DNA of 43,671 bases from Craspedostauros australis (Eukaryota): the NCBI GenBank assembly GCA_030167865.1, contig JALAGF010004489.1, positions 1 through 43,671 of the forward strand, in the 5' to 3' direction. The notes beneath the pieces are model-generated. The model saw only the letters and a list, made by a program, of their open reading frames with translations, was not told the DNA's origin and searched no databases. Of this stretch, positions 32,477 to 42,720 are shown piece by piece. Numbering within the stretch: the stretch's first letter is position 1; each line of letters opens with the position of its first letter. The translations under genes and the position numbers were made by a program.

Positions 32477-33130
32477 TCACCTATGCTTGTGCACCGTCGG
32501 ATGATAGTAGGGCGTCTGCGGAAAGAATGGAAAGGAGCTGCCCATCGACGACGGACCGGCTGAAGGATAGGCCGATGATGCCGCAGAGGAGGACGGCGCG
32601 ATCGCCGATGCGCCATGCAAGTCCATGGACAGCGAGGACGATCCCGCCATGCCCGAATCGGACGACGAGTAGTGCAGCCAATCGTCCTGTAACGAGCGAC
32701 CGAACTCGTCGTCGGATTCTTCGCTGGCAAACTCGTCGTTGTCGCTGTTCCCGTCGTCTGCGTCGTCCTGCTCCAGCTGCGGATAGCACAGGCGATTGAG
32801 GAAGTCGTCATCGGCCGCGGCGGCCGATTGGCTCGAGGCGCCCGCCATGTTGTGATGGCTGCTGATGACGTCAAGCTCCATGCCCATCATGCCGCGGTGG
32901 CGCTGTCGGTGATGCGACGAGTGCATCGAGGCTGGCATGGAGGTCGTGCCACCGCCGGCCGCTGCGCCCGAGGCGGAACGGTGACGCGATCGGCGGCTGA
33001 TCTTCTGCAGTTCCTCGCCCCATCCGTGGTTCGTGAGGCCACCATCGCCATCCTCATTGTCGTCGTTGTTCGGCGTGAACTTGCGGGCGGTGTCGTTCGT
33101 CTGCACGATCGGGGAGTTGAAGTGGTTCAT
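32477..33130 (-). CDS. Hypothetical low-complexity protein, 217 aa
   Basis: ATG-initiated GC-rich ORF flanked by lower-GC DNA; acidic, Ser- and His-rich; no recognisable domain. Confidence 0.6.
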   Translation of the reverse strand: MNHFNSPIVQTNDTARKFTPNNDDNEDGDGGLTNHGWGEELQKISRRSRHRSASGAAAGGGTTSMPASMHSSHHRQRHRGMMGMELDVISSHHNMAGASSQSAAAADDDFLNRLCYPQLEQDDADDGNSDNDEFASEESDDEFGRSLQDDWLHYSSSDSGMAGSSSLSMDLHGASAIAPSSSAASSAYPSAGPSSMGSSFPFFPQTPYYHPTVHKHR

Positions 33131-34925: not shown

Positions 34926-35510
34926 TCAGAAACAACACAAACACGATTTCCATGACGATGACGACGTGCTGGAATGATGATATCCAGCACTCGCATCATC
35001 GCCGGTGTTGTATTCAGCACGTGCCCAGTCTGGATCATCAGATCCCGAGGCGTCGTTGTGCGGCTGATCATTGCGAACGACGTCCTTGTTGGTATCGTTC
35101 TGTGCTGTGCTTTCGCCGTGGCCAGCGCTGTACCAAGTTGGTTGCTGAGGCTGTTCCGACTGCCGCTGTTGCTGCTTGGATGGCGCATGACGATCGTCAC
35201 CATCGTCCCTGTTCTTGTCCCTAAAGTGCTCCCATTGCTGCGTGATCGATCCCTTCTGCTCCTGACGTTGCTGACGCCGCCGCGAGTAGTCCGAGTAGCG
35301 TCTCACTCCGCGCTTGCGGAACTCGCTGGCCTTGGTGGGCCCCACCTCGTGCTTCGGTTGCCGTGACAGCCCGTGCTGCACATCCCTCATGATGACGCGC
35401 TTGTACTTGGGACCTCCAATAGCGCTGAGGTTGTCGCTGGAGGTGGATGCAACGTCGGAGCCGCGCTGCGATGGACGCGACGATGGCGACGATGATGATG
35501 TGTTTCCCAT
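34926..35510 (-). CDS. Hypothetical hydrophilic protein, 194 aa, with possible N-myristoylation and C-terminal Cys cluster
   Basis: MGNTSSS start, in-frame stop upstream, ends WKSCLCCF. Confidence 0.6.
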   Translation of the reverse strand: MGNTSSSSPSSRPSQRGSDVASTSSDNLSAIGGPKYKRVIMRDVQHGLSRQPKHEVGPTKASEFRKRGVRRYSDYSRRRQQRQEQKGSITQQWEHFRDKNRDDGDDRHAPSKQQQRQSEQPQQPTWYSAGHGESTAQNDTNKDVVRNDQPHNDASGSDDPDWARAEYNTGDDASAGYHHSSTSSSSWKSCLCCF

Positions 35511-36174: not shown

Positions 36175-37313
36175 ATGCTGTCCAACCTCTGCAGACAGTT
36201 CACAACGGCGGCATCGCTGTCGGCGCGATCTTGCGCAGGCCCGCGAACAGCCGTCCCTCGTCTTCCTGCAAGCAGCGTTCAGAGTATGGCTGCGAGACGC
36301 CTTGCGCTGCCATCCACCGCCACCACGTCTCTTGCTGCATTCTCGACGGCAGCAGCGTCGCAGGCCAATACGGAATACGTCGAAGTGCTCAAACTCAACA
36401 TGCTGGAGAATAATCCCGGAGCAAGAAGGCAGGTATGTAGTACATACACACATGTATAACATACACACATGTATAACATGCACATATGTATGTGCACATG
36501 CACCAGTGATTTCGCTACGTCATGTTACGGCATGGAATAATCCAGCATGTCTGCATTACTCGCACTCCATAGTCGTACTCAACTCCTTCAACCATACTCC
36601 CTCCTCAATCTCACACAACCACGATGACATGGACGACACAGAAAAAGAGAGTCGGCCGCGGCGTCGGTTCCGGGCGCGGCAAGACCAGCGGACGCGGTCA
36701 CAAGGGCCAAAAGGCGCGAGCCGGTGGCGGCGTCAAACTGGGCTTCGAGGGAGGTCAGACCAAGCTGTACAAGCGCTTGCCCAAACGCGGTTTCACCAAC
36801 AAGCGCTTCGCCACGCCCATGGTCCCGCTCAACGTCGGTAAGATCCAGGACTTTATCGACATGGGACGCTTCCCGCACGTCGCTGCCGACACGGCGGCCG
36901 ACGCCATGCCGATCCTCACATTGAAAGACCTCGTCGACGCCGGCATCACGAATCACACCACCGTGAAGCACGGCATCAAGCTGCTGTCGCATGGCACAGA
37001 ACGTCTGCGCACACCCATCAAGCTGCATATCAGCCGCGCATCGAAGGAGGCCATTCAGGCCGTCGAGAATGTCGGCGGGCAGGTCACGACGGTGCATTAC
37101 AATCGGTTGGCCTTGCGCGTTCTGCTGAAGCCGCACAAGTTTGGTGTCCATCCGCCCAAGATGGCGCGACCGCCGCCCAAGCTGCAACCGTACTACACGA
37201 ACTGGGATGACTGTCGTGGCTACCTCAGCGTGCAGTCGCAGATGCGGGATCTGTTGGCGCAGCGGCCCGAATTGGAGGAAGCATTTCAGAAGGCGCTCGG
37301 CAAGACGAAGTGA
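36175..37313 (+). CDS. MRPL15: Ribosomal protein uL15, bacterial type with N-terminal presequence (mitochondrial); exons 36175-36432 and 36642-37313
   Basis: [39 protein letters not shown]...[38 protein letters not shown]; phase-0 GTATGT..ACAG intron; Arg/Ser/Ala-rich leader without acidic residues. Confidence 0.93.
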
Positions 37314-37768
37314 ATGGTGTGGCATCGTATCATGACTCTCCGGAGAGTGTCTGGCAAAGATACCAGACTCTTGAAAGCATAATATCGTAGTTTGCTGTTG
37401 CGATGATATCATATGAGCCAATGCGAGTCATTAGAGAGCAGTTATCAACAGATAATTACGCTGGGGTATGCCTATGCCATTCGAAACTCTCGCAGTGAAG
37501 TGGCGATGTCATCAGATGTTGAGGATAGCGTGGAACACCAGTACTCGTTGAGTATTGTGTAGAATTCTGTTCGTTCTTTAGCCTCCCTATTTTGTTTTTG
37601 GCGCGATGAACAGATCCCGAGAAAGCGAAAAGCGGATTGTGACCATCCCCGATGACTTCCCTCCACTGTGTACACGCAAGAACGCAAGAACGCAAGAACA
37701 CACGCAATCCTCACAACAACACAATCTTACATTGTCATACACTACCGCACAACAGACACACGACCACC

Positions 37769-38011
37769 ATGGGCAACAATGCTTCCTCCGCACTGGGCGC
37801 CGCCGCTGCCTCGAACCAGCTCAAGGGCGTGCTGAAGGACGCCGAGGATGGAACCAAGGGTGGCAATCCGGAGAACGAAAGGAAGATCCAGGAGATCCAA
37901 GGCCGCAACAAGACCAACATCCAGGACTACGAGCAGAAGAAGGCAGCGCATGCCGCCAAGAAGAAGAAGCTGTCGGAAGCTTGGGCGGCCAATCGCAAGG
38001 CTGCCAACTGA
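37769..38011 (+). CDS. Small 80-aa helical protein, predicted N-myristoylated, complexin-like pattern
   Basis: ACCACC-ATG-G context, strong GC3 codon bias, MGNNAS start, charged helical C-terminal half. Confidence 0.75.
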   Translation: MGNNASSALGAAAASNQLKGVLKDAEDGTKGGNPENERKIQEIQGRNKTNIQDYEQKKAAHAAKKKKLSEAWAANRKAAN

Positions 38012-38460
38012 GGTGGTTTTGGGGCAGAGTTGGTTGCTCAATACGATCGTGGAAGGAAGGAAGCATGCGTGCATGCATTCCATTGAGAAGAGATCCATAA
38101 CAACATGGGAAGAACAAGCAGATTCAAGGGATTTCTCAAGAGAGAGAAGAAAGAAGGAAGGAAGGATGCGGACATGGACAAAGCAGCAAGTCACATGGTG
38201 ACTATTGCATTCTTCAGCTGGCTGGCTGGAGGGATGAATGGAAAGTGTCTGCATCCAACAGTGCTCCTCGTCTATTTTCAGCCGCAAACACCATTCCCCA
38301 ACTCTCCAAACGCCCACACCAAGAGCACTGCAGCAATAACACAATACAATACTATCACAACAGAACTAATTTCATATTTGGACAGAGCATCATGGAACTA
38401 TAATACTGCTCTAGAGTACTCTCATGTGTCTTCGCACCCATGTATTACATTCATCACTGC

Positions 38461-41400
38461 TCAAGCAAAGTGCGAACTGAACACCTCCAGATCTTGCAGT
38501 TCCTCGATGAACGTCCTGCCGTTGCTGCCGGGATTGCCAAGACCGAAGCTCAGCGGCGCCCCCGTCGTTGTGTCGATTGCCAGCACCGTGTACCGCAATT
38601 CACACGTCAGCGTCGCCGTGCCCTCCATGCGTTGCGGCAGTGCCGATAGCACGCACCAAGCCGCTCCACCTGCCTTGTGCGGTAGAACACGGATGGGCAC
38701 GCGGATGGCTGGCTGGATGGCCTCCTCCGAACTCTCGGCGACGACGAACGCGACGTTGCCGAGGGCGCGTCCATCGACGTTAGCGTTGTTCGTGACGATG
38801 GCCTGGATGACGACGTGCCTTGGGAAGAAGTGCTTCACAATGGTGACGTCCGGGAAGGTGGATGAGGCAGACGATGATGGACGAGCCTTGATGGGTTTCG
38901 TCGAATGGATGGGGTCGCCCAGATTCAATGACTTCAATTGAGGCACGACGTGCAAGCTCGCCTGCGCCTTGAGCTGTGCATCCGTCAGCTTCTCCTTCAA
39001 CGCCACGTACTTGGATCGCAGCAAGGATGACACCACCGTCAATCGCCGCACCTGCGACTCGCTGTCGACAAGAGCAGGGATCAGGAATGGCCGAGCGACG
39101 GCCGACACGGGCACGTTCTTTGGCAGCAACCTCAGCGCTGCTGCACGGTCGATGGCACCGCGACGCAGCGCCAGCACCTGAATGGCGGCATTCGTTCCGC
39201 GTTTGGAGTCCGAGTCGGATTGCAGCGCCACACGCACGAGCGGCAGATACGCGCATCCTTCGTCGCCAGGGAGGGTCGCGGACATCCTCGTGTCGTGCGG
39301 ATCGTCATTCCAGGCGCCACCGCGGGCATTCATGCGCGCGCGTTGGCGTTCTCGCTTGGCTTGCAACCGTTCGTGACGCAAATCACAGTACTCCAACGCC
39401 AAATCGAGGCTCTTGCATTCACCGTACAGAATCTGCAAGGCATCCTCGTGCCGTCCCATCCTCCCCAGCACCAGCGCCTGCTCTTGCAGGAAGGACTTGG
39501 GTAGTGCAGATAGCAGGCGTTCGGAACGGATCTTCGTCAGGGGCCATCGCAAGAAGACTCGCAGCTTGCAACGATACAGTGTCCCGAGCACGGTGTCGGT
39601 CTCATCCGTGTTGTCGTCGCCACGTTCCGCAATGACGCCCTCCAGAAGCAGGTAGCACAGCTCGTCGTGGTAGTTCGCAATATGATCTTCCATTTCCGGA
39701 TCCGGCGCCAATCGGTTAAACGCATCCTCCTCATCGTCGTCGGCGCGTCCTGTGGAGATACCAATGGCAGCCTCGAGGTAGGTGACCGCCAAGGCACGGC
39801 CGGACTCGAGTGGCAGCGCGATGGATTCACCATTCTCATTGACGTCATCCGCCAAAACATCCGATTCCTTCTGATCGTACGCGACGGTCGGTTGTATTTT
39901 CTGCAGCAGCTTGATGACCTCCGCTGGATACGTGGGATGCGACAACGGATCATCACGTGCCAGCATGGCCCTCCACTGTTTGGATGTTTGCGGCAGCAGA
40001 GATGTGAAGACTCCGAGACCCAATCGCGGATTCTCTTGCAGCAACCGATGTGTTGCAATGGATTTGAGCACCAGCGAGCAGGCCGACGGCTTGCCCGTGC
40101 TCCACAACTCGGATAGATGAGTGGCCGTGTAGGAGGCGTACTTGATGGGCGACCACGTTGTGACGCCGCTGTTGCCGGTCGATGGCGGTGACGCCGACGA
40201 CGATGGGACGCGGGCCGTCTTCTGGCTCTGCGGCAGCCGCTCGTACAGCACCTGGATGGCACGTTCGTGCTGTCCGCTGGCGCGAAGGAGCCACACGGCC
40301 GATTCGATGAGGTCCATGCTGAGTTGGGCGTTGTTGGAACTGAGCAAGGAGAAGGATTGCGACGCTTCGCGCAGCAGCCGATCTGCGACCTGACTGCAGA
40401 CCTGCACCGCCGATGCAGGCAGATCGTCCGAACCATCGCCGACGGGGTCATTGAGCACGATGGTGCCGACGCGGTTGGAACACATCTTTGCTGCTTTGTT
40501 GGCCAAGGCTGGCTTGGGTGGTGCTAGCTGCGTGCACACTAGACACAACAGAGCTGTGCCGGTGACCAACGACGTGGGGTTGGCCACAGATGCAACGGTT
40601 GGCACAACCGATTGATCCATCGCGCTGGCGTTGACAGATCTGTTTGCGGAGAAGGAGGCCTCGATGGTGCGACCACCATGCGGGGAAGTATCCGACACGG
40701 CCACGGGCCATGATCCATCGTCACCATCCGCACTCTCCCATTCCAAGAGTCCCAAGATGGCCTGCAGGTACTGCCGCAGCAGATCCCGCGATTGAGGTGT
40801 CGGTTCCGGACCCACATACGATGTTGCCGTGAAGCTGGCCTGCAAGGCATCCGCCAGCTCGCCGCGCGGGAACCCGTTGGCCCCAAATGCATCGATGGCA
40901 TGGCGCATGAGACGATCCGCCAGATCCTGGGTCGTGTCCGGCAGCGCGCGCAGAGACTTCGCCTGGCACGAGTAGGACATGGTCACGAGCAGGGAATCGA
41001 GCTGGGATTCGTTGGCGACCACTGGATGGGACTTGTTCATCGCAACCGGATTGTTGTTATTGTTGGCGAACTTCATGGTTGCTGCCGACATCATCTGCCC
41101 CAAGTTCATGGAACGCAGGCCGAAGAAATCGTTGGGCCGCGTTCCGACCTCGACGGTGCGCAGAGGAATGGCAACGCAGGATGGAGAACGGATGCTGACG
41201 AGTCCGTCGCTCGTGAGCACAGCGATGAGGTACGGTCCCGCCAGCGCCGCCGCCAGGATGGGACTCGCCACCGTGACCATGCCGTTGCGCGGCTTCGATG
41301 CCTCCAGGAGGGGGTGGGTGGAACCGTAGGAGTGGTGACGATGCTGATGGGCGGAGGCATCGTGGCGCAGATCCACCACGGCGCATTCGCGGCCGTTGGC

Positions 41401-42720
41401 GCAGAAGATGGTGGACCATTCATCGCGGGTCGATGCGTAGCGCGGCGATGAGGGTCGCTTCGTGTTGCCATCGGCGTCGTGTCTCACCGGCGGTCGCGGC
41501 AGATCCAGCAGGATGACAGGATGCACCTGCGACGATTGGCCGAACGACAGCATCTTGACGCATTCGGCTGAGGAGGAGAGTCTGCCACGGCCGGATGCGG
41601 AACCACCCGCGGCCCGATCGGCGTCGTCGTCCGTGCCGTTGGCATGCTCCTGCTTCGGCTTGCTGGCGACGGCGTAGACCACGTTGCCGACGGTGACGAC
41701 TGCCACGCGCCCCTGCGCCGTCAACTCCAACGCCGTCTGGCCGCCACGCGCTCCCGGTGCAGGCAGCGTGATGTGCGTGAAGTCCCAGCGCTGCAGCTGC
41801 TTGCCGAATCGGCCGCGCGTCTTCTTCTTGCGCGAGTTTGAAATGGAGATGGTTCCCGAGCCTCCGCGCACCATGGTGGAAGCGTTGCTGCTGGTGCCAT
41901 CGTCGGACAAGGCGGGGTGGTAGGCGTCCGTGAAGACCTGCGTGAGGCTGCGACCGGCCGCCAGGAGGAAGCCCGTTTGCGGCGAGAAGGTGGCCGATGT
42001 GACGCGGCGATTCGAGGTTTCCGACAGCGCCAGCTTGCGGAAGGTGCCATGCTGCAGAGTGATGAGGTAGGGCAGGTAAGCGCCGGGCGTGGAGCTGTTG
42101 GCGTGATCGCCCTTGTTGTCGTCCACCATGACCAGGAACGTGGGCGGCAACGCAGGAGCGGACAGCGCGGCATCCTGCGGCGCCGAGGCTGTGAGGGTGT
42201 CGTGGATGATCCCAACCACCGGACCGGGCAAGCTGGCCCCCGAGTCCACGGGAAGGTACATGCGCGGCAGACTGGCGGGCGGACGGCCCGTGGGCGTGAT
42301 GCCGAGCGGCTGCTGCGACTTGCGCGCCATGCTGCTGCCGCCGGCCTCTCCCATGGTTCCCGAGATGGAGTCCGATGCGAAGGAGCCCGTGGTTCCCCCG
42401 CCGCCTCCGCCGCCCAGGCCTCCGCGAGTGGAGGTGGGCGATCGTCCGGGTGCTGCGGAACCCGCCCTCGTTGGCGCGTAGGCCCGGTAGTGCAGCGTGC
42501 CCTGCTCAGTGCCGAAGATGAGGCCGTGCGCCTTGATGGTGGCGGCGTCCGCGCCGGTGGTGATGCTGGAGGGCACCGAATCGAACGGGTTGATGCTTGC
42601 GCCGGAGCTGCCACCACCTGACGCACCGTCCAGGCTGGGATTCATGGAGGCCTGCCAGACGCTGAAGCTCCGCGGGGTCACCCCGTTGGCGCGCAGTTCC
42701 CACGCTGCTTGCAAGGACAT
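38461..42720 (-). CDS. Vps39/TGFBRAP1(Vps3)-like HOPS/CORVET-type protein (~1419 aa) with a C-terminal gamma-COP appendage-like domain
   Basis: Beta-rich N-terminus (LIFGTEQGTLHY), CHCR-like LLSALPKSFLQEQALVLGRMGRHEDALQIL...ALEYC, Vps39_2-like IDRAAALRLLPKNVPVSAV..FL; tail LGDPIHST...VKHFFPRHVVIQ..VTN...CELRYTV..IDTTTG...ELQDLEV; first ATG at 42720. Confidence 0.85.
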   Translation of the reverse strand: MSLQAAWELRANGVTPRSFSVWQASMNPSLDGASGGGSSGASINPFDSVPSSITTGADAATIKAHGLIFGTEQGTLHYRAYAPTRAGSAAPGRSPTSTRGGLGGGGGGGTTGSFASDSISGTMGEAGGSSMARKSQQPLGITPTGRPPASLPRMYLPVDSGASLPGPVVGIIHDTLTASAPQDAALSAPALPPTFLVMVDDNKGDHANSSTPGAYLPYLITLQHGTFRKLALSETSNRRVTSATFSPQTGFLLAAGRSLTQVFTDAYHPALSDDGTSSNASTMVRGGSGTISISNSRKKKTRGRFGKQLQRWDFTHITLPAPGARGGQTALELTAQGRVAVVTVGNVVYAVASKPKQEHANGTDDDADRAAGGSASGRGRLSSSAECVKMLSFGQSSQVHPVILLDLPRPPVRHDADGNTKRPSSPRYASTRDEWSTIFCANGRECAVVDLRHDASAHQHRHHSYGSTHPLLEASKPRNGMVTVASPILAAALAGPYLIAVLTSDGLVSIRSPSCVAIPLRTVEVGTRPNDFFGLRSMNLGQMMSAATMKFANNNNNPVAMNKSHPVVANESQLDSLLVTMSYSCQAKSLRALPDTTQDLADRLMRHAIDAFGANGFPRGELADALQASFTATSYVGPEPTPQSRDLLRQYLQAILGLLEWESADGDDGSWPVAVSDTSPHGGRTIEASFSANRSVNASAMDQSVVPTVASVANPTSLVTGTALLCLVCTQLAPPKPALANKAAKMCSNRVGTIVLNDPVGDGSDDLPASAVQVCSQVADRLLREASQSFSLLSSNNAQLSMDLIESAVWLLRASGQHERAIQVLYERLPQSQKTARVPSSSASPPSTGNSGVTTWSPIKYASYTATHLSELWSTGKPSACSLVLKSIATHRLLQENPRLGLGVFTSLLPQTSKQWRAMLARDDPLSHPTYPAEVIKLLQKIQPTVAYDQKESDVLADDVNENGESIALPLESGRALAVTYLEAAIGISTGRADDDEEDAFNRLAPDPEMEDHIANYHDELCYLLLEGVIAERGDDNTDETDTVLGTLYRCKLRVFLRWPLTKIRSERLLSALPKSFLQEQALVLGRMGRHEDALQILYGECKSLDLALEYCDLRHERLQAKRERQRARMNARGGAWNDDPHDTRMSATLPGDEGCAYLPLVRVALQSDSDSKRGTNAAIQVLALRRGAIDRAAALRLLPKNVPVSAVARPFLIPALVDSESQVRRLTVVSSLLRSKYVALKEKLTDAQLKAQASLHVVPQLKSLNLGDPIHSTKPIKARPSSSASSTFPDVTIVKHFFPRHVVIQAIVTNNANVDGRALGNVAFVVAESSEEAIQPAIRVPIRVLPHKAGGAAWCVLSALPQRMEGTATLTCELRYTVLAIDTTTGAPLSFGLGNPGSNGRTFIEELQDLEVFSSHFA

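Follow-up and report, generated by a model that had tools for sequence, protein, structure and literature searches.

Does the diatom Craspedostauros australis encode a small, lipid-anchored protein that acts on SNARE complexes in the manner of complexin? The question is raised by an 80-residue open reading frame (ORF), P0001, in a window of 43,671 nucleotides (positions 1 to 43,671, forward strand, of contig JALAGF010004489.1, assembly GCA_030167865.1), whose product the original prediction, made from the DNA letters alone, described as a myristoylation-motif protein with complexin-like organisation. We reproduced its translation exactly, and the ORF is a genuine gene. Our results suggest that it belongs to a family of N-myristoylated, complexin-like proteins that would bind the SNARE bundle and be functionally like complexin, a reading drawn from sequence comparison that we hold with a little less than even confidence; we do not classify the family as complexin. 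The likeness consists of several weak, concordant signals, none of which is significant alone, and on the same comparisons a genuine, though remote, homology of the family with complexin seems doubtful. Even without the complexin reading, the sequences point to an undescribed, conserved family of diatom microproteins with a lipid-anchor motif.

The first word-indexed searches returned one relative, from Stauroneis constricta (76% identical), and a full HMMER scan from the pair of P0001 and the Stauroneis protein gave 14 proteins, the profile of which matched 37 proteins at E ≤ 10 among 1346 candidates; these homolog searches covered proteins of 42-174 residues or used a two-sequence profile. 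In the genome, P0001 as query returned itself as the sole match, and P0026 as query found no relative in viral contigs. The resulting family alignment (A3) has 42 rows, with P0020 substituted for its N-terminally extended cluster mate P0006. Four of the 42 rows carry organism names: Stauroneis constricta, Cylindrotheca fusiformis, C. closterium and Amphora coffeiformis, each of them a raphid pennate diatom; no functional annotation that fits was found for these four.

The homologs share the Met-Gly start of P0001. N-myristoyltransferase recognizes Gly at position 2, a small residue or Asn at position 3 and Ser at position 6, and the family agrees with this rule (G2 in 37, N3 in 38 and S6 in 38 of 42 rows, residue 2 being otherwise W in three rows and a gap in two), so that the N-terminal motif of the original prediction is kept across the family; an N-myristoyltransferase gene is present in the genome (E 1.7e-71). 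Since no Cys occurs within the first 15 residues of any of the 42 members, dual N-terminal acylation is not expected. The proposed order of N-terminal helix, polar linker and long charged helix is likewise kept in the family and borne out by the predicted AlphaFold model of P0001, which has two helices, 4-29 (pLDDT, the model's confidence score, 55-65) and 34-79 (pLDDT 87-96 for residues 41-80). Fold searches with this model are uninformative for two helices: Foldseek gave 0 matches, and VIA-align gave generic helices with a best Z of 6.1 and none ≥ 8. Two features of subsets of the family were also seen. In the subclade P0049-P0051, Trp replaces Gly2 and the central aromatic residue is missing; judging from the alignment, these three members have probably lost their anchor motif along with a portion of the binding face. 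Nine of the 42 members (P0010, P0011, P0033-P0036, P0038, P0039 and P0044) end in a short Lys-Lys-x-aromatic-aromatic tail, which by analogy could contact the membrane as a reduced version of the C-terminal domain of complexin; no Cys was found in the last five residues across the 42 members.

The idea of a complexin-like function gained support because most of the homologs found afterwards carry equivalents of R48 and R59 that P0001 lacks. According to PMC2171701, the conserved SNARE-binding residues of complexin are R48, R59, R63, K69 and Y70. In the register that we propose, with diatom residue 50 opposite complexin R48, the conserved helix columns are R46 (36 rows of 42), R50 (32, at R48), F/Y54 (39, at Y52), R61 (32, at R59), K65 (42, at R63), L/I68 (42, at I66) and W72 (40, at Y70), and K69 is K in 4/42 and mostly Q. 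Y52, M55, M62 and I66 are hydrophobic central-helix positions of complexin, and their columns are conserved in the comparator complexins described below. P0009 and four other members match all five SNARE-binding residues by class. The Y/L/W spacing noticed in P0001 is thereby retained in nearly all members, and the remark that the central-helix arginines are not conserved, which is true of P0001, does not extend to the family, where each of them is present in most members. Scored by class on the residues named in PMC2171701, the proposed register attains 3.55 of 5, more than any other register; 677 of 20000 free shuffles and 1514 of 20000 that preserve the helix face reach this score. For a ten-position set, five of whose positions were added after the alignment was seen, 13 and 129 of 20000 do so, respectively.

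Profile and database comparisons point in the same direction. Synaphin (PF05835) is the Pfam family matched by most members (8/42 at E ≤ 1, over five subtrees, the next family having three), a count in which the members are not independent, and it matches 0/30 control tiles, which were the 30 of 42 nearest in composition and are lenient in that most lie below the family median of 0.34 K/E/R. The Synaphin match is co-linear over two segments, e.g. residues 10-82 on profile positions 8-83. As comparator, we used 23 distinct animal complexins, kept from 115 loci that a degenerate pattern of the central helix picked out in metagenome contigs; they were chosen for a start of the complexin type and a central helix without breaks, which inflates conservation in that helix, and no choanoflagellate complexin or complexin III/IV was identified among them. 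Two of them, checked on Synaphin, score 145 and 151 bits. A hidden Markov model (HMM) of complexin gives the family a median of 8.3 bits, versus 1.0 when the sequences are reversed and 0.7 over 294 charged tiles of the genome. Profile alignment of family and complexin with hhalign reaches P 0.0008 and a probability of 24.6 over 24 N-terminal columns, where A14 and K15 of the family (39 and 33 of 42 rows) face the complexin N-terminal domain; the local score of 23.3 exceeds 150/150 global and 150/150 block column shuffles, and the global score is reached by 5/200 block shuffles. Among 177,635 PDB sequences, complexin-1 ranks 14th of the 16 at E ≤ 10 (E 1.3, profile 13-85 on chain 11-81); in PDB searches with A1, A2 and P0009, complexin was not among the matches listed. 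In the language-model search Atlas, a complexin-like cluster (Synaphin 97%) ranks first among the named ones for P0009, and 10/10 of the best family-bearing matches of P0009 share the Synaphin family or clan; yet the score, 0.79, is below the tool's 0.9 line, one in three shuffled proteins attains 0.8, and P0009 had been picked as the best Synaphin scorer.

These qualifications of the Atlas result belong to a larger set of points that weigh against a complexin-like binder. The best Synaphin score in the family is 17 bits (E 0.0072), compared with a gathering cut-off of 27, and on that member, P0009, V-ATPase_G scores slightly higher; Ribosomal L19, Skp and spectrin rank above complexin in the PDB search. 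P0001 has no Pfam match at E ≤ 10, no usable match in Atlas, where its recognition is low, and 3.3 bits on the complexin HMM. The hhalign probability is 18-25% and comes from 23-24 N-terminal columns alone, helix against helix gives P 0.07, the global probability is 1.8, and seven-column shuffles reach the observed score in 10/150 and 20/200 cases. Scores above the 99th percentile of shuffles within 10-residue windows are reached by six of 42 members and, in the reverse test, by 1/23 complexins. P0001 has N, H, K, A and W at R48, R59, R63, K69 and Y70. The R48L/R59H double substitution abolishes SNARE binding of mammalian complexin 2 (PMC13454271); H61 of P0001 is one of these two substitutions, and N50 lies at the other site. 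M55 and M62 are kept in 0/42, the positions being K/R. F3, the sole conserved N-terminal residue of complexin according to PMC2171701, is not kept, and the facing column 12 has A in 26, M in 9 and F in 3 of 42 rows. Among the organism-named family matches there is no non-diatom relative. Finally, the alignment register between the family and complexin appears ambiguous from these comparisons: a register shifted by four is better by strict identity (2.42 vs 1.54) and nearly tied by class (3.45); the BLOSUM scan of residues 50-72 places the proposed register first, yet 420/5000 shuffles equal it; the scan of the N-terminal segment is reached by 2411/5000 shuffles; that of residues 35-76 ranks a register shifted by 11 first; and HMMER alignments (e.g. 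P0044) follow a register shifted by about 11. As in complexin, the accessory helix runs into the central helix, here as a single predicted helix, a feature that is not specific to complexin; P0001 ends eight residues past W72, with neither a complexin C-terminal membrane domain nor a CaaX box. Taken together, the motif, the organisation, the spacing and a weak Synaphin likeness of the homolog profile stand, and neither of the two sequence-level outcomes that the original prediction named as refuting it has occurred; the complexin reading is only partly supported because no score is significant, P0001 itself is unmatched and more than one register is plausible.

SVIP and Ragulator p18 are examples of small myristoylated adaptors, and it could be hypothesized that the family is likewise an N-myristoylated helical adaptor, specific to diatoms and without relation to SNAREs, held by its lipid anchor and binding another partner (a motor, an AAA ATPase, a kinase, or a calmodulin-type or membrane complex) through its one-sided R/aromatic/L/W face. 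On this account, the complexin likeness would arise by chance from an N-terminal membrane helix followed by a single K/E/R-rich helix. Every complexin score is sub-threshold, the spacing i, i+4, i+11, i+15, i+18 is expected of any one-sided binding helix, and the face-preserving null given above reaches the score for the five published residues in 1514 of 20000 shuffles. The family helix is also Lys-rich where that of complexin is Glu-rich, a subclade tolerates the loss of R48, G2 and the central aromatic residue are together missing from three members, and the organism-named members are all diatoms. What chance explains less well is that Synaphin recurs more than any other family, that the language-model search ranks complexin first too, and that the likeness is co-linear across two separate segments; SVIP, moreover, is not among the matches listed (25 of 42 Pfam families). 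We regard such an adaptor as nearly as likely as the complexin-like reading, that is, a serious possibility falling short of even.

The remaining explanations seem less attractive. MARCKS and BASP1 combine a myristate with a polybasic electrostatic switch, and the myristoylation motif and the Lys-rich C-terminal helix of the family, together with the basic-aromatic tail in 9/42 members and the terminal Cys cluster of a neighbouring paralog, P0067, would suit a membrane- or phosphoinositide-binding switch without fixed protein partner, which would capture acidic lipids or be set free by Ca2+/calmodulin. However, K65 in 42/42, L/I68 in 42/42, W72 in 40/42 and the confidently modelled helix suggest a stereospecific protein interface and not bulk charge, which makes a switch of this kind improbable. 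That the protein is a diverged member of an established helical family (V-ATPase subunit G, ribosomal L19 or SERF) might be read from the E value of 0.0042 for V-ATPase_G with P0009 and of 0.023 for L19 with the profile; however, V-ATPase_G is matched by 1/42 members, the L19 matches end before L68/W72 and cover part of a 210-residue protein, and neither V-ATPase_G nor L19 is known to be myristoylated. We consider this origin very improbable.

If the family is a complexin-like binder, as we tentatively prefer, its mode of action can be outlined. Gly2 would be myristoylated, and the myristate together with the N-terminal helix would hold the protein at the cytosolic face of a membrane, the N-terminal lipid taking the place of complexin's C-terminal membrane anchor. 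The conserved face of the C-terminal helix (residues 50, 54, 61, 65, 68 and 72) would lie along the syntaxin/VAMP groove of the assembled SNARE bundle, and binding would promote or speed exocytosis evoked by a stimulus, as complexin does in its role independent of synaptotagmin. Five members with N50 form a supported subclade (95/91), and H61 occurs in 6/42 members; P0001, in this subclade that lost R48 and partly R59, could be a low-affinity, anchor-dependent form comparable to farnesylated complexin IV, the adjacent paralog P0067 retaining the arginines. In this respect, there are two suggestive points in the literature. A lipid anchor offsets the weak SNARE affinity of complexin IV (PMC2171701), and some complexins without an amphipathic C-terminal domain may bind membrane elsewhere, including through the N-terminal domain (PMC13454271).

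The genome contains a cognate exocytic SNARE set, which is general to eukaryotes and does not discriminate between readings: a syntaxin-1A-like Qa-SNARE (L012, E 6.5e-27), a Qbc-like protein (L021) with two SNARE-like motifs, the second judged by eye, and a long linker, and VAMP-type R-SNAREs (L002-L005). Genome searches with the Synaphin and SNAP-25 families yielded no candidate, but their controls gave no signal anywhere either, which makes them uninformative. Acids D57, D65 and D68 of VAMP2 contact complexin R48/R59 (PMC13454271); acids stand at the equivalent positions in 3/3 cases in L004 and 2/3 in L002. C2-domain matches number 27, and the seven loci inspected by eye are copine-like, a multi-transmembrane C2 protein or extended-synaptotagmin-like, from which it cannot be concluded that a classical synaptotagmin is absent. 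The linker between the motifs of L021 (871-2736, + strand) spans ~190 residues, and its frame seems to run past an intron into a further C-terminal exon; L003 (1486-1956, - strand) is a longin-bearing VAMP with VAMP2 as its best PDB match and Asn at the zero-layer Arg; and L008 (1483-2979, - strand) and L009 (1-1701, + strand) are large, with the R-SNARE motif at the end and no transmembrane tail, a tomosyn/amisyn-like layout, a Cys-rich FYVE-like stretch in L008 and ankyrin-like repeats in L009 being seen by eye.

The previously overlooked paralog P0067 (194 residues) lies 2.3 kb from the P0001 gene. It surfaced during decoy scoring, when the family HMM matched it at E 1.2e-10 among 2389 ORFs; hhalign against the family gives a probability of 95.2 (E 2.8e-8), and a genome search with P0011 finds it independently (E 4.2e-6, another match having E 1.27). 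At R48, R59, R63, K69 and Y70 it has R, R, K, Q and W; taken alone, it has no complexin or Synaphin match, which adds to the points against the complexin-like reading. From its composition, the Cys cluster near its C terminus is possibly a second lipid anchor. Its core has a GC content at third codon positions (GC3) of 0.81, and over the whole ORF an antisense frame beats its own frame in codon preference (0.132 vs 0.065). In the family tree (84 columns) it sits on a long branch, and the duplication is undatable from this tree.

The coordinates of both genes and their parts are collected below.

Features of the P0001 gene and its paralog in the 43,671-nucleotide window
Feature	Position	Strand	Basis
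80-residue ORF P0001, diatom microprotein family member	37769..38011	+	translation, run X1 contig, homologs, codon usage
N-myristoylation motif M-G-N-x-x-S, residues 1-6 (predicted)	37769..37786	+	conserved G2/S6; N-myristoyltransferase gene in genome
Ala-rich helical N-terminal segment, residues 8-27	37790..37849	+	hhalign P 0.0008, probability 24.6; model helix; hydrophobic moment 0.30
Variable Gly/Pro/polar linker, residues 28-36	37850..37876	+	model, alignment
Long charged helix, residues 37-79, with accessory-like and central-helix-like parts	37877..38005	+	model helix 34-79
Central-helix-like stretch, residues 50-72	37916..37984	+	R-x3-[FY]-x6-R-x3-K-x2-L-x3-W; P0001 N50/Y54/H61/K65/L68/W72
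Run X1 contig over P0001 gene, flanks and 3' end of convergent gene	37734..38935	+	contig placement
194-residue paralog P0067: MG-N-x-x-S start, family core, ~90-residue polar tail	34926..35510	-	family HMM, hhalign
P0067 core, residues 39-105	35196..35396	-	R, Y, R, K, I, W at R48, Y52, R59, R63, I66, Y70
P0067 C-terminal cysteine cluster, three Cys in last five residues	34929..34943	-	sequence; not canonical CaaX

The P0001 gene is intronless. GC3 of its ORF is 0.80, whereas two intergenic stretches have 0.45-0.46; among the six frames, codon preference is highest in that of the ORF (0.277). Contig coverage comes from one of three runs (X1), whose RNA nature was guessed by the tool, X2 and X3 having yielded no contigs here; X1 holds spliced RNA, since another X1 contig skips the 209-nucleotide GT..AG intron of the neighbouring L15-family gene. 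The contig over P0001 starts 35 nucleotides before its ATG. A 119-residue version from the upstream in-frame ATG at 37652 was rejected, as this ATG is outside the contig and the homologs begin at the Met-Gly of P0001. A short tandem run of an 8-nucleotide unit (37676-37701) lies just upstream of the covered region.

On one side, the neighbour is the ribosomal L15-family gene (36175-37313, + strand, intron ~36430-36638), which sits between the two paralogs and the product of which is probably organelle-targeted. On the other side is a gene for a 1419-residue protein (38461-42720, - strand), which is convergent with P0001, as had been described. The single X1 contig spans the P0001 gene and 475 nucleotides of this gene's coding end, which suggests that the 3' ends of the two genes overlap and is no proof of one transcript. 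The earlier label of this neighbour as Vps39-like is loosely supported, by a below-cut-off match to TPR_Vps41 (E 2.9e-5) and a C-terminal coatomer-gamma (COP-gamma) appendage platform domain (residues 1253-1389, Pfam E 4.1e-12; PDB 1pzd, E 1.2e-6). Vps41/Vps39-type tether subunits usually end in a zinc finger, and a Vps41/Vps39-like protein with a coatomer platform is possibly an unusual fusion, judging from the domain matches. No support was seen for a functional tie between P0001 and this convergent gene; synteny was not compared. A 217-residue low-complexity ORF (32477-33130, - strand) has no Pfam match at E ≤ 10.

Among the papers listed, we found none tying complexin or synaphin to diatoms, stramenopiles, algae or protists, supplementary homolog tables and most subscription papers being outside the scope, and no regulator of diatom vesicle fusion emerged from the literature search. 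Two papers contain both complexin and diatom as words, with a single mention each, and to judge by their listing they treat unrelated subjects. PMC13454271 places the origin of complexin in unicellular holozoans, and the available portions of PMC9750855, PMC5445133 and PMC7934909 give no wider distribution. A single plasma-membrane syntaxin-1A homolog is reported in Phaeodactylum (PMC4710849), a paper in whose main text the word complexin is absent. As far as these sources reach, we found no prior description of this conserved family of lipid-anchor-motif diatom microproteins. If its members bind the SNARE bundle, they would extend this type of regulator for the first time beyond animals and the lineages nearest to animals, and a working stramenopile counterpart would imply either that complexin originated in early eukaryotes or that a SNARE-bundle accelerator evolved twice. 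Should the family prove to be a true homolog, which we think doubtful, complexin would date to near the last eukaryotic common ancestor, not the animal-choanoflagellate stem, and diatoms would have exchanged its C-terminal anchor for an N-terminal myristate. Of the neighbouring pair, the paralog would then be the long form, with two anchors and its SNARE-binding face intact, and P0001 the short N48/H59 form, which would tune the long one or compete against it; jointly they might gate Ca2+-dependent gliding secretion without a classical synaptotagmin. Diatom gliding needs Ca2+ and EukCatA channels, mucopolysaccharide secretion being one proposed target (PMC6509283). It would be tempting to infer from the raphid names and the Ca2+ dependence of gliding that the family has a role in gliding secretion; the link to mucilage or silica exocytosis suggested in the original prediction is likewise inference only. 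An 80-residue, intronless gene with a defined motif makes the regulation of diatom vesicle fusion directly testable.

How does this family compare with known systems? SVIP, LAMTOR1/Ego1 and BASP1 are similar in being of ~80 residues or of low complexity, with a Gly2 anchor and a charged helix; there is no sequence match to them among the Pfam matches listed. With complexin/synaphin, the family shares small size and helical character, the succession of an N-terminal segment, a polar linker, an accessory helix and a central helix, in the proposed register the family-level spacing of R48, Y52, R59, R63, I66 and Y70, with K, L and W replacing the last three, and the A-K pair in the N-terminal segment. 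It differs in lying below the Pfam cut-off, in the distance from N-terminal segment to central helix, which is 7-11 residues shorter, in lacking M55, M62, R67, K69 and F3, in an added N-terminal myristoylation motif, in the missing C-terminal domain of the 80-residue form and, for P0001, in N/H at R48/R59. The known range of complexin covers animals and unicellular holozoans (PMC13454271), whereas this family comes from diatoms. Most of the 23 comparator complexins end in a Cys-x-x-x box (by inspection, unscored). Complexin III/IV and the invertebrate CaaX complexins carry a C-terminal farnesyl, whereas an N-terminal myristate is predicted here and the Cys cluster of P0067 is not a canonical CaaX box; they resemble the family in the permanent lipid anchor, predicted for the latter, and complexin IV may serve as a model for the N50/H61 protein.
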